This document shows, one piece after another, positions 627 through 56,509 of a stretch of 64,000 nt of DNA; position 1 is the stretch's first letter, and each line of letters begins with the position of its first letter. Location: IMG/VR virus record IMGVR_UViG_3300027754_000037, one strand, 5' to 3'. The translations under genes were made by a program, and so were the position numbers. The stretch is from a virus. Its lineage: Duplodnaviria > Caudoviricetes. The notes beneath the pieces are model-generated. The model ran no database searches. It saw only the letters and a program-made list of their open reading frames with translations, and was not told where the DNA came from.

Positions 627-959
627 ATGTCATATGAAGCATACAAACAAGTAGTCGATATCCTAAAACAAAGATGCAAGCTTGCGTTTCCGGTAAGCAT
701 ACGCAGAACCAGTCTTAAAAATCTCGATGGGGATTGTTGCCTAAAAAACAAAAAATTCTACATTAGAATAGACAGCAACCTCAGCGAAGCTTCTGCAATA
801 GACACTATTTTGCATGAATTTGCCCATGCCCGTGCGTGGAATCATCTACACGACTCTCTCAACCCCCACGAATTTCAGGACCAAGTTCATGATGCCTCAT
901 GGGGAGTGGCATATAGCGAAGTTTATCAAATATACGAAAAGAATTTTTTAAAAAACTAG
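627..959 (+). CDS. Small HExxH zinc metallopeptidase-like protein (SprT/ImmA-like)
   Basis: DTILHEFAHA motif preceded by a beta-rich GDC...FYIRID segment. Confidence 0.6.
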   Translation: MSYEAYKQVVDILKQRCKLAFPVSIRRTSLKNLDGDCCLKNKKFYIRIDSNLSEASAIDTILHEFAHARAWNHLHDSLNPHEFQDQVHDASWGVAYSEVYQIYEKNFLKN

Positions 960-1567
960 TGCTCGTGCGACACATTATTTGGAATATCATTAATGACTAT
1001 TTTCTTAATATTAGGAAATTTCGTTTTAACCTCAGGAACAAATTCCTTAAATTTAAGTATTTGATCTGGTCTATCTTCGTGAATTTCAAGTGTTTTATAA
1101 TTTGGGTTCAAGAGACCCATAATAAAATTGAATTTAATTTCAAAAGTGCTGCTGCCAACAGTTCCCGGTTGGCCAGTCAGGAAATATCCGTCCATTTTGA
1201 GGTCAGCATGATCAAGAATCTGCGTAATCCTGCGACGAAACTGGTTGGGACGACCCGTCATCAACACAACGGTAGCTTCAGAATCACTTAGATCATTCTT
1301 ACAGCTTTCAACTGACTTGGTGATATACCATTCTGGTCCCGGCATTTCAGGAACCAAGGGAGGCGACAAAGTTTCTAGCCTGCCCCACCATCCACGATGA
1401 GGCCAAGGATATCCAGTTATATCTTTATATAAAACCTTACCAGTATCTGAGTCTGGGGAATGAAACAAAGTGCCATCGAAGTCGTAGATGATCAATCTAG
1501 ACACATTAACTGCGCTCTCGTTCAGTCTATTCTGGCAATATTCCTTAAATCTTGATATTTTAGCCAT
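956..1567 (-). CDS. HAD-superfamily phosphatase, Swiss-army-knife RNA repair-like (HAD_SAK type)
   Basis: IIYDFDGTLFHSP (DxD motif I), WW motif, LMTGR (motif II), IHEDR (motif IV). Confidence 0.8.
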   Translation of the reverse strand: MAKISRFKEYCQNRLNESAVNVSRLIIYDFDGTLFHSPDSDTGKVLYKDITGYPWPHRGWWGRLETLSPPLVPEMPGPEWYITKSVESCKNDLSDSEATVVLMTGRPNQFRRRITQILDHADLKMDGYFLTGQPGTVGSSTFEIKFNFIMGLLNPNYKTLEIHEDRPDQILKFKEFVPEVKTKFPNIKKIVINDIPNNVSHEH

Positions 1568-3038
1568 TTTGCTTGCTTCTTAAGTCATTCCAGCGGTTGG
1601 TCATCAAAGTGCGCTTAATGGCATCAAATTCGCCACCTACTGGGGTTCTGCCCATGAACTTGAGATAAAGAGGGTTGATCTTCCTTTTGCCGTCATCTTC
1701 GCTTTGATAGGGAGAAAGATCACCGCTGTCAAAACTGAGGAAGGTATCCACATCGGGATTGTGGGCCTTTGCCATCTGCATCCAATCCTTGATCTTGGAC
1801 CTAGTCAAACCGCTGTGGGTTTGAACCATATCATAAAACTGATCGGGATCAAACTTACCTTTCGACCATTGGAATAACTTAACCAAGTAAACCACATCGT
1901 TAGCTTCTTGTTTAGACCAACCGCCTTGCAATAGAATCTGACGAACATCGTCAGGATTGTTGTTGCGCATGGTCCAAGCAGCCGACATCCATCTGTCGTT
2001 CCTGAGTTCTTCCGGCAAGTCGTCTCCGCTAAATTCAATATTCGGGAAAATTAAATTCAACAAACCAGAATCTGAAGCTGTCTTCATATATTTTCTGGCA
2101 TCAGTATCTGGATTTTCTAAACCCTTGACAAACTCTGTCTTGGCACAGCCCGAGGGCAATTTCCAGTCTTTGTGAGCTTTGACGACACTCATATACTTGT
2201 CTGGAAGTGAATTGCCTTTTCCAAAACGATTGAAGTGGTTTAGCAAGCGAAATGCCGTCATGGGATCTTCCTTCATGCGATCACCAAACTTCTCTCCAAC
2301 AGCCTTGATCTCACCAGACTTCAAATGATTGGCACCGCCGAATGGATCAATCAGATCGCTGTTGGGACCATCTTCGTTGGTCAAGGGAATATACATGGAG
2401 TTGATGGTGAAGTCACGATTTGATGCATCTTCCTCGATGTTTGCTGCGCTCATGGCATCATCTGGTGTGAAGTTTTTGCTTTTGGGAGACTTAGAAAGTG
2501 TCGAAAGAATAAAGGGTTGGCCATTCACCTCAGCCGTAATCTCCATTTCCTTGCTTTTTTTGTCCCACTTGCTGGCATAGAAAACTTTGTTCTTATTGCC
2601 AGCAACAGGCAGGCTGGAATAATTCTTGATAGCTCCGTGGCTGGGTTTGACCTCTTTGAAACCATTTTGAGACAGAATCATTCTGATTTCGCTTGGTGTA
2701 GCATCTGTGACCAGATCATAGTTGTTGGGAGTTTTTCCCATGAGGTGGTCACGAACTGCACCTCCTGTCAAATACAGAGATTTCTTTTTGAGTTGAGGTT
2801 CAACTTCGCCTTTGTTTTTTTCAATCGTCGTGTAGCCAACAGTCACCTTGTTGGAATTTGTAAATGCCTTGACGACCTTGGCAAGATTGGCATGATTGGA
2901 CTTATCAATCATGAATGGCGTGAATTCCTTATCGCCACCTTCCTTCTTTTGGAGCTTGATTTTTGCGGTAACGCCTGTGACTGGCTCCGCTTCTTTTTCT
3001 TCTCTAAATTTCAAATAATCTGAGAAATAATGTGCCAT
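1560..3038 (-). CDS. Class II tRNA nucleotidyltransferase/poly(A) polymerase family protein with altered catalytic motifs
   Basis: LYLTGGAVRDHL, NYDLVTDA, EEDASNRDFTINSM, DPFGG, EDPMTAFR. Overlaps the downstream HAD gene by 8 nt. Confidence 0.85.
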   Translation of the reverse strand: MAHYFSDYLKFREEKEAEPVTGVTAKIKLQKKEGGDKEFTPFMIDKSNHANLAKVVKAFTNSNKVTVGYTTIEKNKGEVEPQLKKKSLYLTGGAVRDHLMGKTPNNYDLVTDATPSEIRMILSQNGFKEVKPSHGAIKNYSSLPVAGNKNKVFYASKWDKKSKEMEITAEVNGQPFILSTLSKSPKSKNFTPDDAMSAANIEEDASNRDFTINSMYIPLTNEDGPNSDLIDPFGGANHLKSGEIKAVGEKFGDRMKEDPMTAFRLLNHFNRFGKGNSLPDKYMSVVKAHKDWKLPSGCAKTEFVKGLENPDTDARKYMKTASDSGLLNLIFPNIEFSGDDLPEELRNDRWMSAAWTMRNNNPDDVRQILLQGGWSKQEANDVVYLVKLFQWSKGKFDPDQFYDMVQTHSGLTRSKIKDWMQMAKAHNPDVDTFLSFDSGDLSPYQSEDDGKRKINPLYLKFMGRTPVGGEFDAIKRTLMTNRWNDLRSKQNG

Positions 3039-3092: not shown

Positions 3093-3401
3093 TCAATCAT
3101 TCGGAGGACTTTGTAAATTCAAGAAGTAAAGTATCGTGCCTCCTATTACCATCAAGGCAATTTTCCATAGACTATCGAAAATTCTGCCCCAAATACCATC
3201 GACAGCTTCTAATTTTTTTTGCATCACATCTAAACTATGTTTAATGTCCTTGATTTCATTATTAATAATGAGAATATCTTTGTCAATACTCTCGTTTTTT
3301 TCAGTATGATTTTCTAAAGACTTAACGATGGTTGTGATGCGTTCATCGTGCCTTGTCACTATGTCAGAAACATCTGAAGTTGTTTTCTTGGCTGGTGGCA
3401 T
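3093..3401 (-). CDS. Coiled-coil protein with one C-terminal TM helix (holin/XhlA-like architecture)
   Basis: Heptad-rich N-terminal part, then IALMVIGGTILYFLNL. Confidence 0.55.
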   Translation of the reverse strand: MPPAKKTTSDVSDIVTRHDERITTIVKSLENHTEKNESIDKDILIINNEIKDIKHSLDVMQKKLEAVDGIWGRIFDSLWKIALMVIGGTILYFLNLQSPPND

Positions 3402-3441
3402 AATTTTCCATTTCTATTAACCCGACCCTATATATTTAGTG

Positions 3442-3951
3442 ATGAGTAATACAACAAAAATTGAAGAAAAAACAGAAGTTGTCATCATCGAAGAGTCCGA
3501 ATCTTCGTTTGAGCAACGAGTTGATTCCATGCTGCCAAAAATGAATGTGAGCATCCCAGAGAACTCAGGGCCACCGGCAGATGCTTTGATCAGCGACCAG
3601 CATTATTTAACGGTGTTGGACGAGATCATGAACAACATCCGTGACGACCGCAAGCAGGTTGATGATTTTTTGTCAACTTTCGCAAATATGGTCATAAATG
3701 ACGGCGATGCCACCACATCCAGCAAGGAGGCGATGGTCAATCTCGTGAAAACCAAGGTTGATCTTCAGGACAAGATGCTGAAGGCAGCGGACTTGATGAC
3801 AAGGCTGAAATTGAAAAACACTTATGCTTATTCTGGACCACATTTGAACGCCCTTCAGCAAAACAACATAAATATTGGTACGGATAACACAACTTTCAAT
3901 CGAAAAGAGCTTATTAGAGCCATCAATCAAGCGAAGAAGAAAAAGGATTAA
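3442..3951 (+). CDS. Helical hypothetical protein; possible terminase small subunit
   Basis: Helical-hairpin core (NIRDDRKQVDDFL...KEAMVNLVKTK) and an NNINI tail, loosely like TerS architecture. The product call is weak. Confidence 0.4.
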   Translation: MSNTTKIEEKTEVVIIEESESSFEQRVDSMLPKMNVSIPENSGPPADALISDQHYLTVLDEIMNNIRDDRKQVDDFLSTFANMVINDGDATTSSKEAMVNLVKTKVDLQDKMLKAADLMTRLKLKNTYAYSGPHLNALQQNNINIGTDNTTFNRKELIRAINQAKKKKD

Positions 3952-3953
3952 TT

Positions 3954-5276
3954 ATGTCAAGGCACGCACTCGAAGAATGGCTGGTAGAAGCAAGTGGCGA
4001 TGTTCCGGGCGGTCAATCTCCTATGGGACAGCCAGATTTCCCTCCTATGGGTGGTCCTCCTCCCGGCGACCCAAATGCCGCCAATCCTCCTGCTCCCAAT
4101 ATGGCTCCACCCGGTGCTGCACCCCAGCAGAATTCTCCAGATGCTGAGAAAAAAGCAGCAGAAATGCCCGATGTCAGCAAGGACCCCCAATCTCCCGACA
4201 TGCCCGAAAAAGCATCCGATCAGGATTTTGAAACTTGGAAAAACGAATTTTTCAAAGAAAGCGTCAAGGGAGATGTCGGCAAGCTAATCGAAATGGTCCA
4301 GCAAATTAGGGATGCGGAATTGGAAGCCTATCCCCGCAAATTCGTGGAAGATAACCTTCAAATTTGCTTTCTGCGCCAAAATGCCAACATTGAAAAGGCA
4401 GGAAAGGCTATTCGCAACAACATCAAGCAGAATCTCGACCAGAATAATCCCTCTGTTTCCCTTGTGAACCACCTACTAAGCGCTCTTCAAGTGACTCCAG
4501 AATTGAACAATGTATTCATCAAGCTGAAAGGTCTTCTGGGAATGAAGGGCGACCTTCACCGCAAGTACATGGCGAGCCTTCTTGGAGCAGTACAGGTCGG
4601 TACTGGTGGCAACAACGAAGACATCATTTATAACGAGCGTGATTATTCAATTCGCATTTCGACCCGCTTCAATGATAAGTGGGGAAGAGTCGATATCGGT
4701 AAATGGAGCCTAAAAGAAGACGATCCCGAGCGTTATCTCACCGAGCCTGAGCAAAAGAGAATGGAAGAAGGCAGTCCTGAGGAGAAAGATGTTCTTCGAC
4801 GCAGAGTGGTGATGGAGTCGATTGCCGAGGGTTTCAAGAAAAGAAGCTTTATGATTCATGTTGTAGGACAGGATGGTACTGTTGCCACACTTGGTTGGGA
4901 TTTATCTGGTAGCTTGAAGAGTGCTTATACCTCAGGAAAGCTGGTTGTAAAAACAATTCAGAGTGATAATTCCGAAGCCATGATTGATGATGACGGCGAA
5001 ATCATCCCTTACATGGACATCAAGATCAAATATGTGAAAGATGCCGATGGTGGCGTTGACGAAGATGGCAAGCCAGCCAAGGAAGATCATGATTTCATGG
5101 AGCGGATTGACGGAATGCTATTCCTGACCGCTCAATACAAAATTCTGAAGGAAGCTGCTTCAAGCTTCAGCGGTATTGTCCTGAAGGAAACGCCCTATAC
5201 CGGCAATCCGAGCGACCTGAAGACCATCATGCGCTGTGTTCCAAGTGCTCCTGAGCTTTTAATGAGGAATTGCTGA
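3954..5276 (+). CDS. Hypothetical protein with Pro-rich disordered N-terminus
   Basis: 440-aa ORF tightly packed between its neighbours; no motif recognised. Confidence 0.75.
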   Translation: MSRHALEEWLVEASGDVPGGQSPMGQPDFPPMGGPPPGDPNAANPPAPNMAPPGAAPQQNSPDAEKKAAEMPDVSKDPQSPDMPEKASDQDFETWKNEFFKESVKGDVGKLIEMVQQIRDAELEAYPRKFVEDNLQICFLRQNANIEKAGKAIRNNIKQNLDQNNPSVSLVNHLLSALQVTPELNNVFIKLKGLLGMKGDLHRKYMASLLGAVQVGTGGNNEDIIYNERDYSIRISTRFNDKWGRVDIGKWSLKEDDPERYLTEPEQKRMEEGSPEEKDVLRRRVVMESIAEGFKKRSFMIHVVGQDGTVATLGWDLSGSLKSAYTSGKLVVKTIQSDNSEAMIDDDGEIIPYMDIKIKYVKDADGGVDEDGKPAKEDHDFMERIDGMLFLTAQYKILKEAASSFSGIVLKETPYTGNPSDLKTIMRCVPSAPELLMRNC

Positions 5277-5277
5277 T

Positions 5278-5754
5278 ATGCGACAATTTTTAGAATTCGT
5301 AGACCGCAAACAGCGTGAGACCAAACGACAATTGAAATTGGTCGAGAAGGCTTTGCGTAAAGGCAACTTCCATGTTTACTCCCATCTTGAAGATGATGAT
5401 CCTTATCTTTTCGTGAGGAGCCCTTCAAAAAAGCTTAGCTTTGAAGGAATCCGTGTTTACACGATTGGAGATCAAGTTGCCTATCGTGTTCAAAAAATGG
5501 AAAAAACCGAGCCTTATGGCAAATCTTATTCCTTGAATATCGAAGACATGTTCAATGACTACATGGGAGAGGACATGGACGAGGAAGAGGCTGGGAAAAA
5601 GGTTGTTGAGAGCATGGTCTCTGAATTGAAGAAGTTTTTTAGCAAGAGCGAGGAAGCTGAAGAGGAAATGAGATCGAAGACCGGAGATGGAGTTGGTCTG
5701 ATTGTTAAGACTGGCGGCAGCGATTACAGCAGTACGGTACTAAATAGGTTGTAA
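5278..5754 (+). CDS. Hypothetical protein (possible head-packaged protein)
   Basis: 158-aa ORF with N-terminus MRQFLEFVDRKQRE. Confidence 0.75.
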   Translation: MRQFLEFVDRKQRETKRQLKLVEKALRKGNFHVYSHLEDDDPYLFVRSPSKKLSFEGIRVYTIGDQVAYRVQKMEKTEPYGKSYSLNIEDMFNDYMGEDMDEEEAGKKVVESMVSELKKFFSKSEEAEEEMRSKTGDGVGLIVKTGGSDYSSTVLNRL

Positions 5755-6024: not shown

Positions 6025-6540
6025 ATGGCAGTACCATTTGTCGATGCTGTGATTCCCGGCGGTCTTCTCAATACCACGAGTACGAGTTCTGCGATCAATC
6101 GTGGAAGTTTAGTTACATTCAATTATCTTTTTCATAAACCGGGACACGATCCTGCTCCGATGGTTTTAATCACAGACATTTGGCCACAGTATATTCGTGG
6201 GATTAATTTACACTATTTAACTTTTCCTGTGATTAAAAAACTTGCTTTTCCTTCACCGGGGAGAAGCGTGTGTGACAGCCCAATTTTTACCTATCAATAT
6301 ATAAAAGGCAACAACTATATAGTTTCATCTTTCCGTCAGTATAAACGCAACGGAATCGAGCGTCTGAAGAAGCTGGATTGTGCGTTTATAGTGAATGCTC
6401 TCGCCGTATCTCGGTCATTTGACCCCAACGAGATAGAAGCGATTCGCAAGTCTGTGCGAGAGCAAATTCGTCGCATGGTTAACCAACCAGCAGCACCCAC
6501 AGGCGAAATGACATTTGGACAGGCTCCACCAACAACATAA
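6025..6540 (+). CDS. DNA end protector protein (T4 gp2-like)
   Basis: LVTFNY...DPAPMVL...GINLHYL motif; located next to tail genes. Confidence 0.7.
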   Translation: MAVPFVDAVIPGGLLNTTSTSSAINRGSLVTFNYLFHKPGHDPAPMVLITDIWPQYIRGINLHYLTFPVIKKLAFPSPGRSVCDSPIFTYQYIKGNNYIVSSFRQYKRNGIERLKKLDCAFIVNALAVSRSFDPNEIEAIRKSVREQIRRMVNQPAAPTGEMTFGQAPPTT

Positions 6541-6609: not shown

Positions 6610-9600
6610 ATGGCAGACAATGTAGGTCGTAGCATAGACGCACTAAATTTGACAATAGGTCAATTAAAAGACTTGTTAAATACGAAGTGTAGCACTCCCA
6701 CGCCTATGGGTGGAGGCAGTTCTGGAAGTTTAGGAGAATTAGCTCAAGTTCTAGAGAAATTTACCAAAGATTTTAAAAAGGAAATGGAAGATCAAACCAA
6801 ACATCTAAAAGATGTCTTGGGCGCAAAATCAAGCGTAGATGGTAAAAGGGCCGCAAATAAGAAAACAAAACCAGTTGCTGACAATGCTGACTCTCTCGGA
6901 TCAGATGATTACTTGGATGATGTTAGTGACAATTACAAATTCATGAATGCACTCGAGTCATCTTTACAAAAGAACAAATTAAAGTTTGATAGGCAGTATT
7001 TGGCCACAGCGACCCAAAATATACGCACAAGACATACTGAACTCAGCCATTTAGACGAAAAAGCATTCTTGGCAAAATTAGAAAGTGAAACCTACTATAA
7101 AAAAGCTCTTGCAGATGAAACCTTAGCTCTGAAACAAAATATTAGTGCTGCACGCCAGCTTCGTGATCAGTTTAGCGAAATTCAAAGTATGTTGGGTTCC
7201 TTTGAGCAAAGTCTTGGACTCAAGACCACAGAGACTTTGTTTGGTGGAATAGTTGAACAAGAAATGAAGTTCACTCAGGAAATTCGTGCCACAGCATACG
7301 AGACAGCAGGTGCTACCAAGGAAGCTCGTGGACTTCAAAGAGCATTCGAGGATATTGGCAAGTCTGTAGCACAGACTGGTGTCAACAGAACTGAATTCCA
7401 AAAATCTTATCAGCAAGCTCTGCGAAGCGGTGTCAAAGACCTTAAGCAGGCAGGCAATCTCACCACAGCGCAACTGAATACCGAAAAACAGTTGGGGATG
7501 GAAGCAGGTTCTTTGCAAGACACATTCCAAGATTTGGCGATGTCTGGTCGCATGAATTCTGGACAGATAGCCGACATGGGTCGTGGCATGAGAGATGTAG
7601 CCAAAGCTACAGGCTTAACAGGCGAAGCTCTTAGAGGGGCTATCGACAGCAGTAAAGAGTTAATTCGTGATTTAAGAAACGCATCACAGTTGACGGCAGC
7701 TTCTGCCAAGAATGTCATCGAAATTTCGGCAAATGCCAAAAAACTTGGAGTTGAATCAGAGGTCAATAATTTGATGAAAGGTTTGGTTTCATCGAATAAT
7801 CTTATCCTTGATGCCTCGAACGAAACAAGAACATTGATTCTTCAAGCTGCCAGCAAAGTAGGCAGAGTTGAAGATGCTATGAATGGCACAATAACAAGAT
7901 CAAAGGAAGGCATCAAAGACTTGGCCAAGGGTATGGAGAAAATCCTTAAAGATTTTGGAGTCAATGGTGTTGAAGAAATCGACAATCTTTCAGACACAGC
8001 AAAAAGAGATTTAAATCTTAGAATCAAAGCTGTTTATGGTATGGAGCTTGGACAATTTAGATCAACTCTTGAAAGTATGAAGGAAAGCGGTAAGGGTCTG
8101 GGAGACAGACTGGAAGACATCAATAAAAAACTGCAACAAAATGCAACAACTGAAGAAAAAAAGGTATTGATGGAGCAGCAACGCCAGTTGAAAACATCCA
8201 AGCAATTAGAGGTTTTGACTGCGTTAGATGAAGCTGCCAAGGGTGCTAAGGACATGGGTCAAGCCCTGTCTAAATTTGGAGATCGCAAAAAAGACTTTGA
8301 AAAAGACATGCAAGCCTTGGGCACTTCTTGGACAAGCGAAACCCAAGTTGCTAGAGATGCGATCAAGGGATCTTTGGAAAGCGTTAATGAAGGTCTCAAG
8401 AAAGCTGGCAAGGAAGAGATCAAGATCAGCAGCGACGAAATTGAAAAAGCCATCAAAGACCCGACTGCTCTGCGTGAATTGACTGCCAAGATCACAAAGG
8501 GTGAACAACAGTTGGCAACAGCGCAAAAAGCACAACTTGATCCTGTCACAGAAACAAATCAGAAGCTGACTGAGATTAATGACACTTTGAGAAATATGTC
8601 TCAAAATGTTATCTCTAAACTGTTCAATAGTTTCTTGGGCAAAATAATCATGATAGGAGGTGTTCTTTCTGGTATCGGAGCGGCAGTTATAGGTCTTGGA
8701 GTGACTGGAAAAAATGCTTATGACACGCTCGGTAAGTTAATAAAGGGTGGGCAAGATTTATACGGAGGCAAGCAAGAAAGCTTCGTAAGTAATATCAAAA
8801 AGTATTTTGGAATAGGTGGCAAGAAGAATGCTACTCCTGAAGGTGGAGCGTCTTCTCCAACGGAGGCAGCAGCAGCAGCGGCAGCAGCGGCAGCAGCAAC
8901 AGCGCCTAAGGAAACAGCACCTAAGTCAGCAGAAGCGGTCACCAAGGCTACGACAGAGGGAAAGGGAGGAAGATATGTAAAAATTCTGGAAGAGTCTCTG
9001 AAAGAGCTTAATTCTATTTCAAACACTATGTCGCAATCAAGTCTCTTCCTTCAAAAAATATCAGAATGCATTTGCAGACCCAGAAAAGCAGCGGCAGCGG
9101 GCACCCCACCCGGTGCTGGAGGAACTAGTGCTGATTCTGCTGCTCGAGTAGCCCTCCAGAGAGAACAAAAAACCAATGTCAAAACGGATGCCAAACTCAA
9201 CGAAAAGCAGTTAAAAGAGCAAAATAAAGAAATTAAAAGAGGAAAAAGAGAAGACATAATTCAGAGAGCGGAGACAAAGGGAGCCAAAGCTGCTGCTAAA
9301 GAAAGCAAGGGAGGAAAAGTAGATTGTCCTCCAACAGCAGAAGCAGGTTGTTTAGAACCCAGCGTGATGGAAAATATGGGAGCAGAGATGAAAAAGGCCG
9401 CTCCTGCTATTCTCATGTTTGCTGCTGGAGCACTTTTGTTGGGTATTGCGCTGATGTGGCTTGCCAACAAGTTGCTTGCGGCCTTGAATCTTGATGCTGC
9501 AAAAATTGCAGAGACTGCCGAGTCGTTAATTGTGATTGTCGGAGTAACGGCAGCTATCGCCGCTGCTGCTTATGCAGCGGGCAAAGTCTTGATGTCTGAA

Positions 9601-12600
9601 GAGATGCAAGATTTTGTTAAATCTTACAAAGAAGACAAAGCAAAAATCATAGAGGCAGCTAAGGTTTTGATGATAATGGGTCCTGCCCTACTTTTGTTGG
9701 GTGCTGGATTGGTAGCTTTTGCAGGCTACTTGATTAAGACTCTTGGCATCGACATGAGTATGGGCATCGAAATTGCCGGGGGAGTAGTGGTCATAGCCGG
9801 TGTAACTGCCGGAATTGCAATTGCAGTAAAAGAATTCGTAGAAGCTTATGAAGAATTGTCCGCAAATGCCACATGGCAAAAAATACTTAACAATAAAAAG
9901 AAAATAGCAATGGAAATTGCTAAAGGAGCTTTAGCCCTTATAGTGCTTGGCGCAGTAATTTTGACAGTAGCAATAGCAGTAGTCAAATTTGCAGATTTAC
10001 TCATGGGAGCATTCGGAATAAGCCCGCAAAAGGCTGCTGAAGTGGCAACAGGCGTGGCTGCACTTCTACTTGCAACTGGCGTAATCGCCTTAGGTGTTTA
10101 TGCCGGATATCGTGGTCTGCAATTATTGTCAACTTTAGGAGCGGAAATATACGCAAGTTTTGGTGCTAGTTTAGCTGCTGTTGGATTAGGCGCATATGCC
10201 TTGCTAATTTTGGGGCCGATTATTTTAGGTGTAGCAGTTGCAGTCACTAAATTTTGCCAGCTTCTTTTGGGAGCATTTGGGCTTGATGCAGCTACAGCCA
10301 CCAAAGTTGCTTATGATGTTGGCGCTCTTCTTTTGGCTACTGGCATAATAGCTGCTGGAATACTTGCTGCTACATATGGACTAAAATATCTTTCGACTTT
10401 GTACAAAGAATTGAGCGACATTATCAAGAAAATGTTAAAGGGAGCCTTTGTGCTCTTTGCTTTGGGAGCGCCAGTCTTGTTGTTGGCTGCTGCTGTAATT
10501 GGAATTACAAAATTATTCTTAGCACTTACTGGGCTCGATTCAGCTAAAACTGCTAAAGCAGCAGAAGATTTGGCAACTCTTTTGGTTTCTGCTGGTATGA
10601 TTGCATTAGCTGTTATAGGCGCATCTTATGGCATTTCATATTTGGGTGCAAATGCAGGCGCATTAATGGCTTTGATTTGGCCAATGTTTGTAGGCGCAGG
10701 AGTATTGATTTTATTGTCGCTTGCGGTCGGAGTTCTGGCGGCAGCAATTAACTATATGGCTTCTGCAATTATCAAAGGTACAAATCCTAAGAAGGCAGCA
10801 GAAACATCAGAAGCGCTTGGTAGTCTGTTGACATCCTCTGGCAAAATCGCTCTGGCTATAATTGGAGCTTCTGCTTCTTCTGCATTACTTGCCGGGATGC
10901 TTCTTTATGTGCCTTATTTAATAGTTGCTATGTTTGTGGCTGCTGTAGTTCTCGCCCTTTTGTCAGTTGCATTAACTGCTTTCGTCAGATCAGTAATTGG
11001 AATTGCAGACCAGATGATGCTGCTTGGCAGTCCTAAAGCTTTAAGCAAGAAAGCAGAAACTGTTGCAGGAATTCTGAAAGCAGCGGGTGATGTTGCGCAA
11101 AATATCATGGATGCCAAAGACAAAGTTAAAGCTCTATACGAGTCCGTTTCATATTGGGATTATTTTTTTGGCATTAGGCGACCTTTGATTAAAGGCACAA
11201 AAGTTCTTGAAGAAATCAAATGGCCACTAGTTCTTTTTGCAATCGAAATGATGAACTTCCATTGGCTTTTGACTCGTTTTGTGAGTGCGCCCAAAGCCAT
11301 AGCTGCTGGCAAACAAGTTGCCGCTATTTTAGGAGCTATGGGCGATGTAGCGCAAAATATGGTAAAGACTAAAGATGCTGTTGCTGCTCTTGCGCCTTCT
11401 TATTTAGGTTCCTGTTGGCCTAAAATGCTTACTTTTGCGCCAACTATGGAAGATGGTGTCAAGGCTCTTGAAACTATCAAACAACCTCTGATTGATTTTG
11501 TCATTTCGATGATAGATTTCCACACGAATCTACTCAGTCAAACTGGGAGTAGCGCACCCAAGATAATAGCAGCAGGAAGACAGGTTGCCCAAATATTCAA
11601 AGCAACTGGTGAAATAGCTGAAGGCATAATGAAAACCAAAGATGCTGTTGCTGCTCTTGCGCCTTCTAAATTAGGTGCCCATTGGCCTGCATGTCTTACT
11701 TTGACACCAACTTTGGCAGATGGAACAGAAGCTCTAAAAACTATGGAAGAACCTCTGATTGATTTTATCAAAGAAGTCAAGGTATTTGCAGACAAGCTTG
11801 AGGGTGTGGTAAATCCAGCAGAAGTGAAGAAATATAGTGGCATCATTAGAAATGCCACAAGCCTTATTTCTCAAGTTGTCAGAATGCTTGATATCTTGTC
11901 TAAGAAGTTGGTCCCCTTGACTACCGGTGGGTGGTTTTCAGAATCTCCTATTAAACAAATAGGAAATGCTACCGTAGAAATATCAGCTTGGTTTGGAACC
12001 ATAGCCGTGCTTTTGAAAACTGGAATCATCGAGCCAATCAAAGAAAATTTCCCAGCCGAGGAGGAGCTCAAGATAGTGACGGGAAAACTTAACAACATGG
12101 TTAAAGTTTTGGACGCTCTGCCTCCGGTTTTGGACAAATTAGGCAGTCTTGTGGGTCAATATGCTGTTGGTGGATGGTTTACTGTCTCTCCCATAGCAGC
12201 CATAGGCAAATTTACTGATATTTTCGCTAAATGGTTTACATCCATAGCAATGATGTTGAGAACGGGAATTGTCAATCCAGTTATGGATTACTTCCCCGGA
12301 GAAGATGAAATTGAAGATGCGGCTCTTAGATTGGACGGGATGGTCACTATTTTAAATAAAATACCTCCTGTTCTTGATACTTTGGGTGATTTGCTGAACA
12401 CCTATACAGCCGGAAACTGGTTTGAACTTTCGCCCATCGGATCTTTGATGGTTCTTGGAATCAGATTTGGAGGTTGGTTCAACGGTGTTGGAATGATGTT
12501 AAGGGATGGCGTAATTAATCCTGTCCTCAAATACTTCCCCGCTGAAGACGAAGTCACAGAGATAGTCAGCAGACTTGAAGGAATGGTGGTTGTTCTCAAC

Positions 12601-13296
12601 AAGCTGGGTGTTGTTCTGGGCGAGTTAGGATTTGTTATGAGTGCTCTGAGTTCCATATCCATGCCCTTTGGATTCATGAATCTCTTCCCGATGGCAAGTC
12701 TTGGAGGCATGTTGACGGGTCTTGCTGGCGCTACCTCAGGAATAGGTTCCTTGTTCTCGGGAGGCGGGAAAACAAGTGTTGGAACTCCCAGCGATAATGC
12801 AATAGATAAAAGAGTTGAACAACAAAGTGCAGAAGCTGCCCAAATGCAAGCTGGACTGCTGGCAAAATTGGTAGATCAAGCGATTTATGGCGATGGTATC
12901 AATGTTCAGAGCGCCGGAAATGCTGCGGTCACTAGTAAAACAACAGCATCAACGATTGGCGCAAACATGGCAGATATACAGTCGAAGGTTGCAGCGCAAA
13001 AAGCAGGCAATCAACTTCCTTCCAGCAAGGTTTCAAGCGATGAGTTGGCAGACATTGCTACAGAAAGCGAGACCCAAACAGAATTGCAGAAGAAGCTTGT
13101 TGGTTTGTTTGAGGATATGCTTAAGGCGCTTAAGCCTGCTGATCAAGCGATTGTTGGTCAAGCAGGAGCAGGTCCCGCCGACACTTCTGGCGAAAAAGTA
13201 GGTGGAAAACCGCCAAATTACTTTCGATCCAGCCAAGGCATGGTAAACAGCGGCCCCGGCAAGCAAACGCTGAACATGGGTCCACAAAAAGCGTAA
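6610..13296 (+). CDS. Tail tape measure protein
   Basis: 2228 aa, Ala/Lys/Gly-rich helical composition, many hydrophobic segments and internal repeats, directly upstream of baseplate genes. Confidence 0.85.
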   Translation: MADNVGRSIDALNLTIGQLKDLLNTKCSTPTPMGGGSSGSLGELAQVLEKFTKDFKKEMEDQTKHLKDVLGAKSSVDGKRAANKKTKPVADNADSLGSDDYLDDVSDNYKFMNALESSLQKNKLKFDRQYLATATQNIRTRHTELSHLDEKAFLAKLESETYYKKALADETLALKQNISAARQLRDQFSEIQSMLGSFEQSLGLKTTETLFGGIVEQEMKFTQEIRATAYETAGATKEARGLQRAFEDIGKSVAQTGVNRTEFQKSYQQALRSGVKDLKQAGNLTTAQLNTEKQLGMEAGSLQDTFQDLAMSGRMNSGQIADMGRGMRDVAKATGLTGEALRGAIDSSKELIRDLRNASQLTAASAKNVIEISANAKKLGVESEVNNLMKGLVSSNNLILDASNETRTLILQAASKVGRVEDAMNGTITRSKEGIKDLAKGMEKILKDFGVNGVEEIDNLSDTAKRDLNLRIKAVYGMELGQFRSTLESMKESGKGLGDRLEDINKKLQQNATTEEKKVLMEQQRQLKTSKQLEVLTALDEAAKGAKDMGQALSKFGDRKKDFEKDMQALGTSWTSETQVARDAIKGSLESVNEGLKKAGKEEIKISSDEIEKAIKDPTALRELTAKITKGEQQLATAQKAQLDPVTETNQKLTEINDTLRNMSQNVISKLFNSFLGKIIMIGGVLSGIGAAVIGLGVTGKNAYDTLGKLIKGGQDLYGGKQESFVSNIKKYFGIGGKKNATPEGGASSPTEAAAAAAAAAAATAPKETAPKSAEAVTKATTEGKGGRYVKILEESLKELNSISNTMSQSSLFLQKISECICRPRKAAAAGTPPGAGGTSADSAARVALQREQKTNVKTDAKLNEKQLKEQNKEIKRGKREDIIQRAETKGAKAAAKESKGGKVDCPPTAEAGCLEPSVMENMGAEMKKAAPAILMFAAGALLLGIALMWLANKLLAALNLDAAKIAETAESLIVIVGVTAAIAAAAYAAGKVLMSEEMQDFVKSYKEDKAKIIEAAKVLMIMGPALLLLGAGLVAFAGYLIKTLGIDMSMGIEIAGGVVVIAGVTAGIAIAVKEFVEAYEELSANATWQKILNNKKKIAMEIAKGALALIVLGAVILTVAIAVVKFADLLMGAFGISPQKAAEVATGVAALLLATGVIALGVYAGYRGLQLLSTLGAEIYASFGASLAAVGLGAYALLILGPIILGVAVAVTKFCQLLLGAFGLDAATATKVAYDVGALLLATGIIAAGILAATYGLKYLSTLYKELSDIIKKMLKGAFVLFALGAPVLLLAAAVIGITKLFLALTGLDSAKTAKAAEDLATLLVSAGMIALAVIGASYGISYLGANAGALMALIWPMFVGAGVLILLSLAVGVLAAAINYMASAIIKGTNPKKAAETSEALGSLLTSSGKIALAIIGASASSALLAGMLLYVPYLIVAMFVAAVVLALLSVALTAFVRSVIGIADQMMLLGSPKALSKKAETVAGILKAAGDVAQNIMDAKDKVKALYESVSYWDYFFGIRRPLIKGTKVLEEIKWPLVLFAIEMMNFHWLLTRFVSAPKAIAAGKQVAAILGAMGDVAQNMVKTKDAVAALAPSYLGSCWPKMLTFAPTMEDGVKALETIKQPLIDFVISMIDFHTNLLSQTGSSAPKIIAAGRQVAQIFKATGEIAEGIMKTKDAVAALAPSKLGAHWPACLTLTPTLADGTEALKTMEEPLIDFIKEVKVFADKLEGVVNPAEVKKYSGIIRNATSLISQVVRMLDILSKKLVPLTTGGWFSESPIKQIGNATVEISAWFGTIAVLLKTGIIEPIKENFPAEEELKIVTGKLNNMVKVLDALPPVLDKLGSLVGQYAVGGWFTVSPIAAIGKFTDIFAKWFTSIAMMLRTGIVNPVMDYFPGEDEIEDAALRLDGMVTILNKIPPVLDTLGDLLNTYTAGNWFELSPIGSLMVLGIRFGGWFNGVGMMLRDGVINPVLKYFPAEDEVTEIVSRLEGMVVVLNKLGVVLGELGFVMSALSSISMPFGFMNLFPMASLGGMLTGLAGATSGIGSLFSGGGKTSVGTPSDNAIDKRVEQQSAEAAQMQAGLLAKLVDQAIYGDGINVQSAGNAAVTSKTTASTIGANMADIQSKVAAQKAGNQLPSSKVSSDELADIATESETQTELQKKLVGLFEDMLKALKPADQAIVGQAGAGPADTSGEKVGGKPPNYFRSSQGMVNSGPGKQTLNMGPQKA
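11371..11667 (+). repeat. Exact 30-nt direct repeat pair in the TMP (11371-11400 and 11638-11667) marking an 89-aa internal duplication
   Basis: AAAGATGCTGTTGCTGCTCTTGCGCCTTCT occurs twice, 267 nt apart (KDAVAALAPS). Confidence 0.9.
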
Positions 13297-15660: not shown

Positions 15661-17886
15661 ATGGCAGTAGCATTTGAAAAAGACATCAAAAATCTCGAAG
15701 GCAGGCTTTCAGCCATTGAGAACAGATTTGGTGGCATCAATTACGAAATGAAATCTGTGGTGACCAGCGAAATCTCAGATCGCTCACGAGTAGTAGAGCA
15801 GTCGCAAATGCAGTATGGTCTTTATACTGCACTCTGTATGGAAACGGTGGATGTATGGAAACAAAATAGGATTCGCTGGTACTCGCCAATTTTTCACAAA
15901 AAGAATACACCTCTGAAAGAACTTCCTTGGGCTAATGCAGTAAGTGCATTGGGGGGATTCGATGACTGCGGGGCAACATGGGTGCCACCAGCAGGTTCGA
16001 CGGTTTGTATTCTTTTCGAGAATGGAAATAGAGGTTCTCCATATTACATCGGCACTTCATGGCACAGAAACCGTGGAAAAGATGGACAGCACAATTGGCG
16101 AATTGATATTCCAGAATATTCTGAAGTTTGGGATGGCAAAAGAGGTGGTTACTTAGTAGGACCAGATGATGGTTCTCAGAATTTTCCACCGTGGAATACT
16201 GAAAACTACAATGGCTTTGATCTTAGTTCTCTTGTGGATTTTGCATTCAATACAGATGCACAAAAACTCATAACTGTGCCTAATATTTACGGTTTTAAAA
16301 CACCTGAAAAACATATGATCAAAATGGTCGATGGCGATCCCCATTGTGATCGAAAATGGAAGCGTCTTGAGATCATGTCCAGTTGTGGAAACTGGATCAT
16401 GATGAAAGATGACCATATTCACTATGCTGGCCAATGGGCTCACAAGGACTGTGGTGGAGTGGTAAAAGAAGGTGAAGTGTCTTGCTTTGAAGACGCATAC
16501 ACTCAGAGTCAAATCGACAAACTCTTGGGTGGTTTTCTAAATAATCCAATTGATCCAGACATTAATGTTGAAGACCAGATAGACGCAGCATATGGTGATG
16601 AATTTCAACTAAAGAATGTTTTGGATCAAACTCCGAAAAAAGGCAAAAAATACGAAAAATTAGAATGCGAAGGCAAAAAGAGCAACAAGAAAATTGTTAT
16701 TGGACACCCTTGGACTGGAGCTCCGGGAACAAAATATTATTCAAAGGGAAGTGGCGATATACAAAAGGGCGACAATCCTTTCTTCAAGCACAAACAAGAA
16801 TGTAGGCCATACAGGGGTGCTGCTACTCCTCAGAACAATCAAGTTGACTTGCCTCAATCCGGCATTCAAATACAGAGCATTTCTGGCCATTGTTTTGTGA
16901 TGGACGACAGCGTTGAGGAACCTTCGGGAGCTCCACGATGGGATAGAGAATTTGATTTTGGTTGCAACAACCACTATGTCGGTAGAAGCTACTGGAAATC
17001 AGCAACAGGCCACACTATTGAATTGAGCGATGTTGAAAGTCCTCAGGGTGAAGATGGTGCCAATCTCAGGGGCAGTAGTAACTATATCAAATTGCTTACT
17101 GCTACTGGCAACAAAATTGAACTTAACGATCATACAGAATCTCAACCAGATTGCGTTGGATGCCCTCCAAATATTGCAGGATCAGAGCGTGGCATTCATC
17201 TCCAAAGCACCAGTAATCACACGATTGATATGGTCGATGAAGGCAATGAACAATGCGGAAATTGCCGTATGGAAGGTGGTGTTCCTGTACCCAAGGCCAA
17301 AAAGGCCTTTGTAAGAATTAGAACCGGTTACGGACTAGAAATATCCATGAACGACGATGCAAGTCAAGAAGACACGCAGCAACAAAATATTCAACTATTC
17401 TGCCCTCAAAAAGACAACACAGAAAGAGGTCCACATATCACCCGTTGGCAAGAAGCTCCTACAGGACCGGGATTGGTATTTTTGAGGGCTGGAGGCAACT
17501 ATGTGACTTACACTTATGACAACCATTACACGGTAGTTGGCGACGAAGAGCAGAATCCTTCCAATAAAATCGACTATGTAACAAAAATGAACTTAGTATA
17601 CACCAAAAAGGAATACATAAACATATCGGATAAATTGCATCTTTTTTACGCAAAAGACATGATTTTGTTGCTTGCGGGTCAAGATAATCCTACTGATCCA
17701 GATTCGACTACTGCCTGTGGTTGCGGTGGTGAAGCTCCAAATATTGGTGCTGTACTTGTCTATGACTTTTGTACTGGCTGCGTAAGAATTAGTGATCGTG
17801 TATTTGCAAGCTCCTCGGGTGATGCTCAACCACTTTCAATATTCCAGCTTAAACCTTTTGCAAAACAATGTGTGGGATGTAACTAA
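15661..17886 (+). CDS. Baseplate central spike (gp5/VgrG-like OB-fold), Cys-rich
   Basis: RIRWYSP...LPWANAV...VPPAGSTVCILFENGNRGSPYYIG OB-fold; repeated TATGHTIEL/TATGNKIEL beta-helix turns. Confidence 0.85.
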   Translation: MAVAFEKDIKNLEGRLSAIENRFGGINYEMKSVVTSEISDRSRVVEQSQMQYGLYTALCMETVDVWKQNRIRWYSPIFHKKNTPLKELPWANAVSALGGFDDCGATWVPPAGSTVCILFENGNRGSPYYIGTSWHRNRGKDGQHNWRIDIPEYSEVWDGKRGGYLVGPDDGSQNFPPWNTENYNGFDLSSLVDFAFNTDAQKLITVPNIYGFKTPEKHMIKMVDGDPHCDRKWKRLEIMSSCGNWIMMKDDHIHYAGQWAHKDCGGVVKEGEVSCFEDAYTQSQIDKLLGGFLNNPIDPDINVEDQIDAAYGDEFQLKNVLDQTPKKGKKYEKLECEGKKSNKKIVIGHPWTGAPGTKYYSKGSGDIQKGDNPFFKHKQECRPYRGAATPQNNQVDLPQSGIQIQSISGHCFVMDDSVEEPSGAPRWDREFDFGCNNHYVGRSYWKSATGHTIELSDVESPQGEDGANLRGSSNYIKLLTATGNKIELNDHTESQPDCVGCPPNIAGSERGIHLQSTSNHTIDMVDEGNEQCGNCRMEGGVPVPKAKKAFVRIRTGYGLEISMNDDASQEDTQQQNIQLFCPQKDNTERGPHITRWQEAPTGPGLVFLRAGGNYVTYTYDNHYTVVGDEEQNPSNKIDYVTKMNLVYTKKEYINISDKLHLFYAKDMILLLAGQDNPTDPDSTTACGCGGEAPNIGAVLVYDFCTGCVRISDRVFASSSGDAQPLSIFQLKPFAKQCVGCN

Positions 17887-18305
17887 TGAAAACTTTTCTC
17901 GGTGTTCCGTATCCAACCAGACCCAATCCTAGAGGTTATTGGTATTCGCAAGACGGAACCAATCAGATCAAATCTGATTTGCTCAGTCTTTTACTTACAA
18001 ATCCCGGCGAAAGAGTCATGTTGCCAGAGTTTGGAACACCGCTGAAAAAGTTGGTTTTTGAGCCCAATGACACTACTTTAAGTACGCAGGCAATCAATAT
18101 GATTGCCTCTTCGATTAAAAGATGGGAGCCCAGACTTGTCGTACAAAAAATTGAGGCCTCTGCAAATGTTGACAAGACATCATTAAATAAACTAGACGAC
18201 AAAAGCGAACTAGATCAAATCCTGTTTATACGAATCATATTCGTTGATCCCCAAAAGATCAAAGATGTTCAGGAGTTAACGCTACAGGTGCCATTGTCGG
18301 CGTAA
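17886..18305 (+). CDS. Baseplate wedge subunit gp25-like
   Basis: IKSDLLSLLLTNPGERVMLPEFGTPLKKLVFEP...IKRWEPRL. Confidence 0.92.
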   Translation: MKTFLGVPYPTRPNPRGYWYSQDGTNQIKSDLLSLLLTNPGERVMLPEFGTPLKKLVFEPNDTTLSTQAINMIASSIKRWEPRLVVQKIEASANVDKTSLNKLDDKSELDQILFIRIIFVDPQKIKDVQELTLQVPLSA

Positions 18306-18317
18306 AAAGGAGAAAAA

Positions 18318-19877
18318 ATGGCAATAAACAACAACTGTCCCTTCGACTTAGCGCCTTATACTCAGTCGCAGGTGATCACTACTCCTAATATTTTTAATTT
18401 AAATTATACAAACCAAGACTTCTGGAGTATGAAGACGAGGTTAATTGAATTTATTCAACAAAAATTCAGCACAGATTTTTCTGATTTTGTCGAATCCTCT
18501 CTTGCCATGATGCTGATTGAAAACTGGTCGTTTTTGGCTGATACTTTAAGCTTCAAAATGGATCAGATAGCCAATGAAATTTTTATAGACACAGTTACTG
18601 AAACAGAGAATGCATTTAGATTGGCCAAGTTGGTGGGTTTCAATCCGCAACCGCCAATTGGAGCCCGTGCTATGTTCACGGCAACTCTTAACAATCCTCT
18701 TAGCTACGATGTGGTTGTCCCAAGCCCATTTCAAATTAAATTACCTGCTGCTGGGGCAGTAGCATATATTGAATTATATCAAGCAGATTCAGAGAATAAT
18801 CCCCTATTCGATGAAGATATCATAATTCCATCTGGAAATATTGTTAACGCCAGCGTCATCGGAATAGAAGGCAGAACAAGAACTTTATCTGCTGGTGGAA
18901 CAGGAGCAGTTGGACAAACTTTGCAACTTGGTACTTCACCAGTAATCTTCGATTCAATCAGAGTTTATGTTGATGGCGTTCTGTGGGACCAAGTTGAATA
19001 CTTCACAGACTCACAACCAAGGCGTGAATATAGAATCGAATATGATAGCAATTATGTCGCTTATATAATATTTGGAAATAATAGAACTGGTCTAATTCCA
19101 AGTATTGGAAGTTCAATAGAAGCGGTTTACCGCACGGGTGGTGGTCCTATCGGCAATATAGTCAGCGGTTCAGTCAATTCTCAGACCGTGATAACCGTAC
19201 CCGGATTGCAATATCCTGTTCCAGTCTCATTTAGAAATTACACAAAAGGTGAGTTTGGATTTTCTGGAGATACGATTGATGATATTCGTTTAAAATTACC
19301 TGCTTGGCAAAGAGCTCAGAATCGTGCTGTAACAGGATTGGATTACAAAACACTAACAGATCAATTTGCAACGCCATACCAAGGACAAATTGGCAAATCT
19401 ACGGCTGTTCTTAGGAATTATGGTTGTGCTGGCAATATTGTCGATTTATATATTTTGGCTTTAGATGGGCAAAGCAATCTTCAACTTGCTTCAGACGACC
19501 TTAAGAATAGCTTGCAGGTTTACATCAACGATAAAAAAATGCTGACAGATTTCGTTTGTATTCGTGATGGTCATGTGCTTTCGGTTGACATGGCGCTTGA
19601 TGTTGTACTTGATCGATTATACAGAAAATTTGAAGATGAAATTAGAACAAAGATACAAAGAAGACTGGATACTTATTTTACTATCCAAAATTGGGAATTT
19701 AATGAAAATCTTAAAGATACCGAAATTGCCAAGGTGATTTCAGACATCAAAGAAATAAGCAGACTTGATATTACTTTCACTACAAACGATCCAAACAACG
19801 GCGGTAATTTGGTTACGACGCAATTTTTCGAGATCATAAGACCAGATGTCACTACTATTGGATTCACATACGAATAA
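18318..19877 (+). CDS. Baseplate wedge subunit gp6/baseplate J-like
   Basis: DFWSMKTRLIEFI...DFVESSLAMMLIE; YRTGGGPIGN; QNRAVTGLDYK. Confidence 0.9.
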   Translation: MAINNNCPFDLAPYTQSQVITTPNIFNLNYTNQDFWSMKTRLIEFIQQKFSTDFSDFVESSLAMMLIENWSFLADTLSFKMDQIANEIFIDTVTETENAFRLAKLVGFNPQPPIGARAMFTATLNNPLSYDVVVPSPFQIKLPAAGAVAYIELYQADSENNPLFDEDIIIPSGNIVNASVIGIEGRTRTLSAGGTGAVGQTLQLGTSPVIFDSIRVYVDGVLWDQVEYFTDSQPRREYRIEYDSNYVAYIIFGNNRTGLIPSIGSSIEAVYRTGGGPIGNIVSGSVNSQTVITVPGLQYPVPVSFRNYTKGEFGFSGDTIDDIRLKLPAWQRAQNRAVTGLDYKTLTDQFATPYQGQIGKSTAVLRNYGCAGNIVDLYILALDGQSNLQLASDDLKNSLQVYINDKKMLTDFVCIRDGHVLSVDMALDVVLDRLYRKFEDEIRTKIQRRLDTYFTIQNWEFNENLKDTEIAKVISDIKEISRLDITFTTNDPNNGGNLVTTQFFEIIRPDVTTIGFTYE

Positions 19878-40398: not shown

Positions 40399-40614
40399 AT
40401 GTCTAGCAATTATAGTGAAGTTGCGCCTCCCGGTTGGAGCGGTACTGTCAAGGCCATGAAAAAAAATAAAGAGATCGATAATCCCTACGCTCTCGCATGG
40501 TACATGAAGAACAAAGGCTACAAGCACCATCACAAACCAGAGAAGAAGAAAAAAGACGAGAGCGTTTTTCAGCACAAGTCTTTCATCGAATGGATTAGCG
40601 CCAAATATCGCTGA
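40399..40614 (+). CDS. Small basic hypothetical protein (APPGW...NPYALAWYMK)
   Basis: AAGGAG RBS and CATAAATA at 40366-40373. Confidence 0.7.
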   Translation: MSSNYSEVAPPGWSGTVKAMKKNKEIDNPYALAWYMKNKGYKHHHKPEKKKKDESVFQHKSFIEWISAKYR

Positions 40615-44928: not shown

Positions 44929-45244
44929 TTTGCATCTCTTGGTTATCAGGCAAATCAAAACTCTGTGACTTTTTCTTCTGAATATCTTCAAGTTTGCGCT
45001 TTTCGTTCATGAGCTCATTTTCGATATTCTGTAATACATTTACAGAGCTTTGCGAAGATACAAGCTTGTTTTCTTTTCTCTCCAGCCTTTGCTTTTGCCT
45101 GCTGCCTCTCTTGCTCTCCACATTTTCGACAACCTGCAAAGCCTTGCTCAATAAACCTCTGACTTCTTGCAAAGCAAAATCTTCAGGGATGTTTTTTAAG
45201 GCTTGTAAAATACAAATTTTTAATCCAGCCGTGTTATTTTTCAT
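44915..45244 (-). CDS. Coiled-coil hypothetical protein
   Basis: Overlap-coupled to both neighbours. Confidence 0.65.
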   Translation of the reverse strand: MKNNTAGLKICILQALKNIPEDFALQEVRGLLSKALQVVENVESKRGSRQKQRLERKENKLVSSQSSVNVLQNIENELMNEKRKLEDIQKKKSQSFDLPDNQEMQNVFG

Positions 45245-46214: not shown

Positions 46215-46215
46215 T

Positions 46216-56209: not shown

Positions 56210-56240
56210 AAACCCGCCCTAAAAAGGCGGGTTTTTATTT
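56210..56240. terminator. Terminator between convergent genes
   Basis: AAACCCGCC-CTAAAAA-GGCGGGTTT followed by a T-rich tract. Confidence 0.8.
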
Positions 56241-56468: not shown

Positions 56469-56509
56469 AATGAATATATAGTTTGCCGACATATTTTACA
56501 AGGAGGGTC

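Follow-up and report, generated by a model that had tools for sequence, protein, structure and literature searches.

The window analysed here, a stretch of 64,000 nucleotides of viral DNA (IMG/VR record IMGVR_UViG_3300027754_000037), encodes on its minus strand a 492-residue homologue of class II CCA-adding nucleotidyltransferases (NTases), followed by a HAD-type phosphatase of 203 residues. We suggest, with a probability of about 0.6, that this NTase is a functional pseudoenzyme derived from a phage CCA-adding enzyme, which no longer polymerises, is a probable binder of the tRNA 3' end and has the HAD protein as its predicted 3'-phosphatase partner. The source of the window is a huge uncultured freshwater phage: protein relatives sit on viral contigs of up to 670 kb, and the stretch recurs in freshwater metagenomes of several studies. 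A nucleotide search of the window against phage records gave zero matches, relatives there being found at the protein level only, and no tRNA genes occur within the 64 kb. The two genes are arranged as follows:

1560-3038, minus strand: NTase, putative pseudo-CCA enzyme, 492 amino acids; class II CCA-adding-enzyme homologue with degenerate catalytic and nucleoside triphosphate (NTP)-binding motifs; PF01743
956-1567, minus strand: HAD_SAK_1 (Swiss-army-knife RNA repair) phosphatase, 203 amino acids; catalytic motifs intact; PF10307
1560-1567, minus strand: 8-nucleotide overlap ATGGCTAA, with the NTase stop and the HAD start

An earlier, sequence-only reading of this DNA had claimed the 8-nucleotide overlap, and direct reading bears it out: ATGGCTAA holds the NTase stop TAA (1560-1562) and the HAD start ATG (1565-1567), an arrangement that suggests translational coupling of the two genes. 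The NTase head is recognised by Pfam as PolyA_pol (PF01743; E = 8e-22, 78.4 bits against a gathering cut-off of 23), and the PHROGs label for the protein is tRNA nucleotidyltransferase. The register of its motifs was set by a HMMER alignment to the solved Planococcus CCA enzyme 6ibp, which pairs HDVDV with NNYDL, RRRDFTINAM with SNRDFTINSM and EEDALRMLR with KEDPMTAFR; the three motifs fall exactly on DVD, RRD and EDALR of 6ibp. The sites in question read:

2715-2723, minus strand: motif A, N106-Y107-D108 (codons AAC TAT GAT), where DxD is expected
2541-2543, minus strand: E166, a clade-specific gain; Val in the canonical sister group
2508-2510, minus strand: I177, at the third-carboxylate site (E of FEIATFR in canonical relatives)
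2493-2495, minus strand: S182, replacing the conserved Arg of the TFR strand
2412-2420, minus strand: motif B, N207-R208-D209 (codons AAT CGT GAC), where RRD is expected
2256-2270, minus strand: motif D, E257-D-P-M-T261 (codons GAA GAT CCC ATG ACG), where EDxxR is expected

The three departures named in the sequence-only reading, NYD, NRD and EDPMT, are all upheld by the codons and by the 6ibp alignment, and two losses can be added to them. Where canonical relatives have the strand FEIATFR, the window NTase aligns FILSTLS, which puts I177 at the third catalytic carboxylate and S182 at the Arg of the TFR strand. E166 aligns to T of HGTV in 6ibp. Among the features of class II CCA enzymes, the head domain and the fold are present in the window NTase, whereas DxD, the third carboxylate, RRD and EDxxR are absent. 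The protein also falls short of the NCBIfam equivalog cut-offs for CCA/PcnB (best 63 bits against 305.65, and 60 bits against 290), but the canonical phage relatives likewise score under these cut-offs, and the low scores therefore mirror the divergence of the whole phage family.

The altered motif states are a property of a clade. We aligned 57 homologues out of 288 family matches, spanning 46-97% identity. Site 106 reads N in 51 of these, G in 5 and D in 1, and site 108 reads D in 51 and N in 6; five homologues read NYN and have a motif A without any carboxylate. The first Arg of motif B is lost in 57 of 57 (site 207: N in 50, G in 5, T in 1 and S in 1), next to R208 and D209, which are invariant. 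At the template position, T261 is found in 50 of the 57 and I, V, G or M in the others, with R in none. Site 177 varies inside the degenerate clade and can be E, I, S, R, P, N, D or T.

A second comparison drew on 80 IMG/VR loci, from which 35 distinct degenerate sequences were set against 12 of a canonical sister group. The group-specific changes are D106N, R182S, R207N and R261T: site 182 is S in 32 of 35 degenerate sequences and R in 12 of 12 canonical ones, and site 261 is R throughout the canonical sister sequences (12/12). The degenerate group has in addition gained E166 (E in 33 of 35, as opposed to V in 11 of 12 canonical sequences), R/K157 and K415. The sister group, which includes the uncultured phage LR756511.1 (41% identity), has DYD, FEIATFR, RRD and EDxxR and the same neighbouring genes. 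The degenerate motif states are common to 37 distinct viral loci, and more than 100 clusters at 90% identity carry a degenerate NTase.

The sequence-only reading had proposed to check whether NxD and EDxxT are conserved in the clade and whether reads support the codons. NxD/EDxxT is conserved among the 57 homologues and the 35 distinct locus sequences. Two further runs yielded the contig behind L085/L086, in which the motif codons are identical, and in four freshwater runs from four studies the contigs that cover these codons have zero variants there. An isolated mutation or a sequencing error is excluded by the clade-wide conservation.

In a quick maximum-likelihood tree, for which SH-aLRT is the only support, the window NTase falls within a clade of 17 representatives that are all degenerate (SH-aLRT 100). 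Its sister is the canonical LR756511/P0186 group, and the two together fall within a clade that has support 98. Well-supported branches of the wider phage CCA-like set require at least 7 state changes, indicating that the catalytic motifs have been lost repeatedly among phage CCA-like proteins. A nested sub-clade (P0189, P0195, P0196, P0198, P0199, P0202 and P0214, and locus L046) has lost even GGxVRD, RD and EDP, which read GPSLRK, GRC and MYPYL, and its members are still full length; the locus L046 also keeps the synteny of the other loci.

The protein itself is under strong constraint and retains its fold. A comparison with the 97%-identical L085 gives a dN/dS of 0.075 for the whole gene, with 0.038 for the head and 0.094 for the C-terminal half. 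The AlphaFold2 model of the NTase (pLDDT 87.6) aligns with solved class II CCA enzymes at Z 20-25 over 330-370 residues (VIA-align; model residues about 24-486), the matches spanning head, neck, body and tail and including the tRNA-bound structures 8cbm_E and 5hc9_B; a Foldseek search with the same model gave E = 2e-11. The first ~87 residues are a family-specific basic extension with a net charge of about +7 in the degenerate proteins against +2.6 in the canonical ones, and a search of the ESM Atlas with residues 14-87 gave zero usable leads on this extension. Catalytic residues have thus been lost from a protein that is intact and under purifying selection across its clade, as is expected of a pseudoenzyme, and it is from this combination that we infer its inactivity.

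Published mutagenesis bears directly on the sites concerned. Both Asp residues of motif A are catalytically essential, and AxA variants are inactive (PMC11784652). When all three template positions of EDxxR were randomised in the human CCA enzyme, with Thr in the codon set, no variant with another residue in place of the Asp or of the Arg came through selection for A- or CCA-repair (PMC11784652). Since the window NTase has lost one Asp, the third carboxylate, the template Arg and two more Arg, and since each of the triad carboxylates is replaced in at least some members of the clade, it is most likely dead for CCA addition. Moreover, two relatives with a degenerate NTase also encode a separate canonical CCA enzyme (DVD/FEIATFR/RRD/EDKLR), and the degenerate copy is therefore not their CCA adder. 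This second enzyme, together with the persistence of the further-eroded sub-clade, supports the view that the degenerate protein is inactive. The 533-kb record that is rated complete has the degenerate copy only. The second canonical enzymes lie at L083 2186-3421, on a 381-kb IMG/VR record (G003), and at L084 2148-3365 (G004); the one of G003 overlaps a 163-residue P-loop kinase (GVSSSGKST) at L083 3418-3909.

The sequence-only reading had offered two alternatives, a catalytically dead tRNA-binding decoy or an enzyme of new specificity. The five changed sites, the NYN variants, the variable third carboxylate and the irreplaceable Arg of EDxxR favour a catalytically dead protein, for which tRNA binding and a part as decoy would be putative; new specificity is less favoured, even though the head is still the most constrained part of the protein.

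A likely history of the pseudoenzyme can be outlined. The lineage has lost the first metal-binding Asp (N106) and three Arg that belong to the NTP pocket of canonical enzymes (now S182, N207 and T261) and has ceased to conserve the third carboxylate (I177), and it has retained the whole head-neck-body-tail architecture and the basic N-terminal extension. This architecture is how class II enzymes hold tRNA. The most likely activity would be to bind the acceptor or 3' end of tRNA and not to extend it. In the window phage the NTase would be co-translated with an intact HAD resembling polynucleotide 3'-phosphatases, which may remove the 3'-phosphate left by RNase damage, and the dead CCA enzyme may recognise, hold or shield the tRNA end. 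CCA would then be re-synthesised by the enzyme of the host, or by the second canonical phage CCA enzyme in those relatives that have one. In the literature on inactive or pseudo CCA enzymes in phages, we found no description of such a protein.

The phosphatase belongs to PF10307 HAD_SAK_1 (E = 4e-15; 56.5 bits against a gathering cut-off of 25.6). Its motifs I-IV are all present, with D29-x-D31-x-T33, T104, K145 and D165 invariant in 46 homologues and E161 almost so, which bears out the earlier claim of intact HAD motifs. A conserved cap segment specific to the family, GWWGRLETLSPPxVP, separates motifs I and II. The HAD model (pLDDT 92.3) has its top Foldseek matches, at a weak E of 3.5e-4, in Pnkp1 of the Pnkp1/Rnl/Hen1 complex; the 3'-phosphatase of T4 Pnkp matches with a TM-score of 0.68 by target and a root mean square deviation of 3.4, other HAD phosphatases being close behind. 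The HAD profile gave no significant match to PDB sequences, and these leads come from the fold search only. In a survey of jumbo phages, the part of linear 3'-phosphatase in phage RNA repair is assigned by prediction to stand-alone HADs of the Swiss-army-knife (SAK) type, and tRNA ends are said to be restored by CCA-adding enzymes, degenerate forms being unmentioned (PMC7824862).

The sequence-only reading took the two genes for an RNA end-healing pair. This fits the HAD_SAK_1 family, the matches to Pnkp1 and T4 Pnkp and the canonical sister enzymes preceding the same HAD, but the coupling is looser than had been implied: 9 of 12 canonical loci, as against 14 of 37 degenerate ones, have the HAD downstream of the NTase (Fisher p = 0.04). 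Where relatives have both genes, the spacing is mostly an overlap of 8-31 nucleotides or a gap of 2 to about 95 nucleotides; a few are 1.3-2.8 kb apart, and in one relative the HAD lies ~7 kb downstream. The phosphatase link is hence ancestral and recurrent but not obligatory for the pseudoenzyme. A prediction of the NTase-HAD complex, run without controls, scored 0.00 and counts neither way. Two other arrangements were seen. On a 670-kb JGI contig (P0101) a degenerate NTase is found without an adjoining HAD, flanked by a UvrD-type helicase and with an RNA ligase (PF09414) 3.7 kb on. In LR756511.1 an open reading frame (ORF) of 230 residues lies on the opposite strand between the canonical NTase and the HAD (L001 5505-6197, minus strand); it has a signal-peptide-like start and a caspase-like His...Cys pattern (HGW...DTCHSG).

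Several observations weigh against a non-polymerising tRNA-end binder. Conservation is highest in the head (61% within-clade identity, compared with 46% for body and tail), which also has the lowest dN/dS, and its motifs GGAVRDHL, RDFTIN and D258-P259 are invariant or almost so. A pure scaffold would be expected to relax its head motifs, and this conservation implies that the pocket still does something. The pocket thus still matters, be it for holding a 3' end or a ligand or for new chemistry. D108 is retained in ~88% of the members, Asn is able to ligate Mg, and the gains of E166 and R/K157 could be compensatory. Finally, the presence of the HAD at the minority of degenerate loci given above means that partnership with the phosphatase is not the universal role of the gene.

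An alternative supported by several of these points is that the NTase is still an enzyme, with a rewired active site and another substrate or chemistry at the tRNA 3' end; for instance, it might remove or transfer a group on A76 or add a non-canonical nucleotide. The loss of D106 and of three Arg would then go together with the gain of E166 and R/K157 in one reshaped pocket. Besides the constraint on the head and the retention of D108, the invariance of GGAVRD, R208-D209, T211, N213 and D258 speaks for such an enzyme, as does the conservation of the gained E166 and R/K157 in at least 86% of the members; E164 and E166 are present even in the proteins that read NYN. The canonical triad is, however, left without an invariant carboxylate, given the NYN members and the freely varying site 177, and the hairpin register of the 6ibp alignment would place E166 on the outer strand, away from motif A, rather than beside it. 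Moreover, the nested sub-clade persists without GGxVRD, RD and EDP, and in the selection experiments the Arg of EDxxR had no functional replacement (PMC11784652). We regard a rewired enzyme as possible but unlikely, and the weight of the evidence puts the non-polymerising pseudo-CCA enzyme ahead of it.

Both proteins of the pair begin with a short peptide of similar type:

2997-3038, minus strand: NTase N-terminal peptide MAHYFSDYLKFREE, consensus x-F-x-x-[YF]-h-x-[LF]-[RK]-E-E
1517-1567, minus strand: HAD N-terminal peptide MAKISRFKEYCQNRLNE, a motif of the NTase type, ending L-x-E

F5 and E13 of the NTase are conserved in the degenerate and in the canonical group, and the peptide forms a detached helix of low confidence in the model; in the HAD, the helix of residues 3-16 (pLDDT ~55) stands ahead of the HAD core. 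Endings of the type h-x-E occur in both sequences, as LNE in the HAD and FRE in the NTase. A position-specific scoring matrix (PSSM) was trained on relatives of the NTase and the HAD and used with a threshold score of at least 8. The NTase peptide scores 26.6, the NTase family being inside the training set. Among the other proteins of the window, 3 of 62 N-termini reach the threshold as against 3 of 745 internal controls (p = 0.007), and in the flanks of related loci 17 of 803 N-termini do so, compared with 8 of 5140 internal windows (p = 5e-10). The PSSM matches listed mostly begin 1-3 residues past a Met, and for the three window proteins scoring at least 8 translation probably begins at the Met that precedes the motif and not at the annotated start of the longer ORF.

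Similar starts, at a first or internal Met, are seen in the proteins encoded at 5278-5754 (plus), 56235-56492 (minus), 45234-46250 (minus), 62264-62653 (minus), 38469-39950 (plus) and 40595-41659 (minus), whose peptides are listed as MRQFLEFVDRKQRE, MKQSFLDYLNKKE, MPIKKLADFLREKQE, MKTFEEFVVQKE, MLRFRDY and MAVSFKNFVKW. The second canonical CCA enzyme of G003 and the P-loop kinase that it overlaps start alike by eye (MNFKQWLLTEE and MNSFISWLENRDRKE).

The T4 capsid targeting sequence, MKTYQEFIAE with a cut after h-x-E, seems to resemble the motif of the NTase and the HAD. A capsid targeting sequence is all that the T4 internal proteins have in common (PMC3012670). It is conceivable, though we think it quite unlikely, that the dead CCA enzyme and the HAD carry a T4-like capsid-targeting peptide, are packaged in the head and are injected with the DNA as a ready-made counter-defence that guards tRNA ends. 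Packaging and injection are to be taken as a lead suggested by the peptides and not as a result. If this were so, the pseudoenzyme would clamp and shield tRNA acceptor ends, or pass damaged ends to the phosphatase, as a protection from host systems that attack the 3' tail of tRNA, such as toxins modifying the acceptor end or Cas12a3, which cleaves tRNA tails (PMC12851939). On this view, huge phages that have inactivated their CCA enzymes, repeatedly and independently, would have changed adaptively from the repair of tRNA ends to their protection.

Around the pair, three further features accompany the NTase along the lineage:

627-959, plus strand: SprT-like mini metalloprotease, 110 amino acids, HEFAH; PF10263 at E = 2.5e-5, under the Pfam cut-off
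3093-3401, minus strand: coiled-coil protein with a C-terminal transmembrane (TM) segment, 102 amino acids; phrog_937 at E = 7e-7; 54-nucleotide spacer to the NTase ATG
3439-5754, plus strand: divergent block of three genes (170, 440 and 158 amino acids), which anchors the position of the NTase across the lineage

Of the 37 degenerate loci, 18 have the SprT-like gene next to the NTase, as have 8 of the 12 canonical ones. Its orientation is convergent in the window and the closest relatives of the window and co-directional in most others, and the copy in LR756511.1 is at L001 6929-7240. Upstream of the NTase, 21 of the 37 degenerate loci and 6 of the 12 canonical ones carry the gene of the 102-residue TM protein, which may belong to the same transcription unit. 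Most constant is the three-gene block: among 51 distinct loci, canonical and degenerate, the 170-residue gene is present in 50, the 440-residue gene in 51 and the 158-residue gene in 50. None of the three has a Pfam or PHROG family match, and they are likely core genes of the lineage. The NTase is likewise a core, syntenic and position-fixed gene of this huge-phage lineage. The 440-residue protein has an N-terminal stretch rich in Pro and Gly.

Beyond the block come a DNA-end-protector-like gene (phrog_429, weak; 6025-6540, plus strand), an ORF of 2228 residues without a family match (6610-13296, plus strand) and T4-like baseplate wedge genes (17886-19877, plus strand). As the end-protector-like and baseplate genes adjoin the block, the RNA-repair pair seems to stand at the edge of a virion module. 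On the other side, a ClpP-like protease is found a few kb off in a close relative. In the 97% relative L085, about 2 kb past the left edge of the window, the ClpP-like gene is followed by an ORF of 127 residues (10795-11220) with HHMT and KHIT, two HxT motifs recognised by eye and ~55 residues apart, as in minimal 2H phosphoesterases; among the L085 ORFs matching DNA left of the window, no 2H family was found by Pfam or PHROG.

This setting could also be read in another way, namely that the NTase is a virion or head-assembly protein, in which the CCA fold has been exapted as a scaffold for a structural or morphogenetic role unrelated to RNA. At least 49 of 51 distinct loci have the gene fixed next to the block, where it borders the region with the end-protector-like and baseplate genes, and the ClpP-like protease lies a few kb away on the opposite side; the N-terminal peptide of the NTase is of a type common to several unrelated proteins of the window phage. 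However, the canonical sister with an intact active site holds the same position, and position alone is therefore no sign of a non-RNA role. The commonest downstream neighbour of the NTase is, moreover, the RNA-repair HAD, and the motifs of the nucleotide pocket are still conserved; we accordingly find a purely structural role improbable. That the gene is a decaying pseudogene, or its odd codons an error of assembly or sequencing, has next to no probability and is refuted, because nothing but the motif losses themselves speaks for it, and the 492-residue frame is intact, full-length homologues at 46-97% identity share the same states, dN/dS is 0.075 and the same codons recur in independent assemblies and in the four runs of four studies.

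To our knowledge, CCA-adding enzymes are universal and essential, and phage copies are routinely annotated as tRNA repair enzymes. Here, strong selection maintains, as a core gene of a large and well-sampled lineage of huge freshwater phages, a CCA enzyme from which the catalytic and NTP-binding residues have gone. If the pseudoenzyme reading holds, the automatic label of tRNA nucleotidyltransferase is wrong for the degenerate genes, and the lineage points to an unexplored, non-catalytic use of a tRNA-end-binding scaffold in the conflict between phage and host over tRNA. Canonical and degenerate sisters in one genomic setting offer a natural matched pair for experiments.

Compared with the class II CCA enzymes of Planococcus (6ibp/6q52), Geobacillus (1miv), human (TRNT1; 4x4w/8cbm) and Thermotoga (5hc9), the window NTase has the PF01743 head and the full fold in common, and it keeps GGAVRD, the RD of motif B and the ED of motif D. 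It differs in the replacement of the first Asp of motif A, the third carboxylate, the first Arg of RRD, the Arg of EDxxR and the Arg of TFR, and in having an extra basic N-terminus of ~87 residues and a hairpin insertion of ~40 residues in the head. The canonical CCA enzymes of huge phages (LR756511.1, L001 3989-5515; IMG/VR loci L034, L036, L043 and L054) are closer, with ~41% identity over the full length. They share the N-terminal extension, the head insertion and the N-terminal peptide, and they adjoin the same 102-residue TM protein, 170/440-residue block, HAD_SAK_1 and SprT-like genes, but they have kept DYD, FEIATFR, RRD and EDxxR and are more often followed by the HAD.

The window HAD has the same DxDxT core as the phosphatase domains of Pnkp (T4 Pnkp 5uj0/2ia5; Pnkp1 4xrp) and the Swiss-army-knife HAD of jumbo phages (PMC7824862). 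Unlike Pnkp, it stands alone without a kinase domain; the structural E-values are weak (3.5e-4) and its RNA substrate is a prediction. As for the N-terminal peptides, the aromatic spacing and the terminal h-x-E seem to be alike in the T4 capsid targeting sequence, and for the proteins of the window phage cleavage and presence in the virion are putative. As is the case for the internal proteins of T4 (PMC3012670), unrelated proteins of the window phage have a short N-terminal peptide in common.

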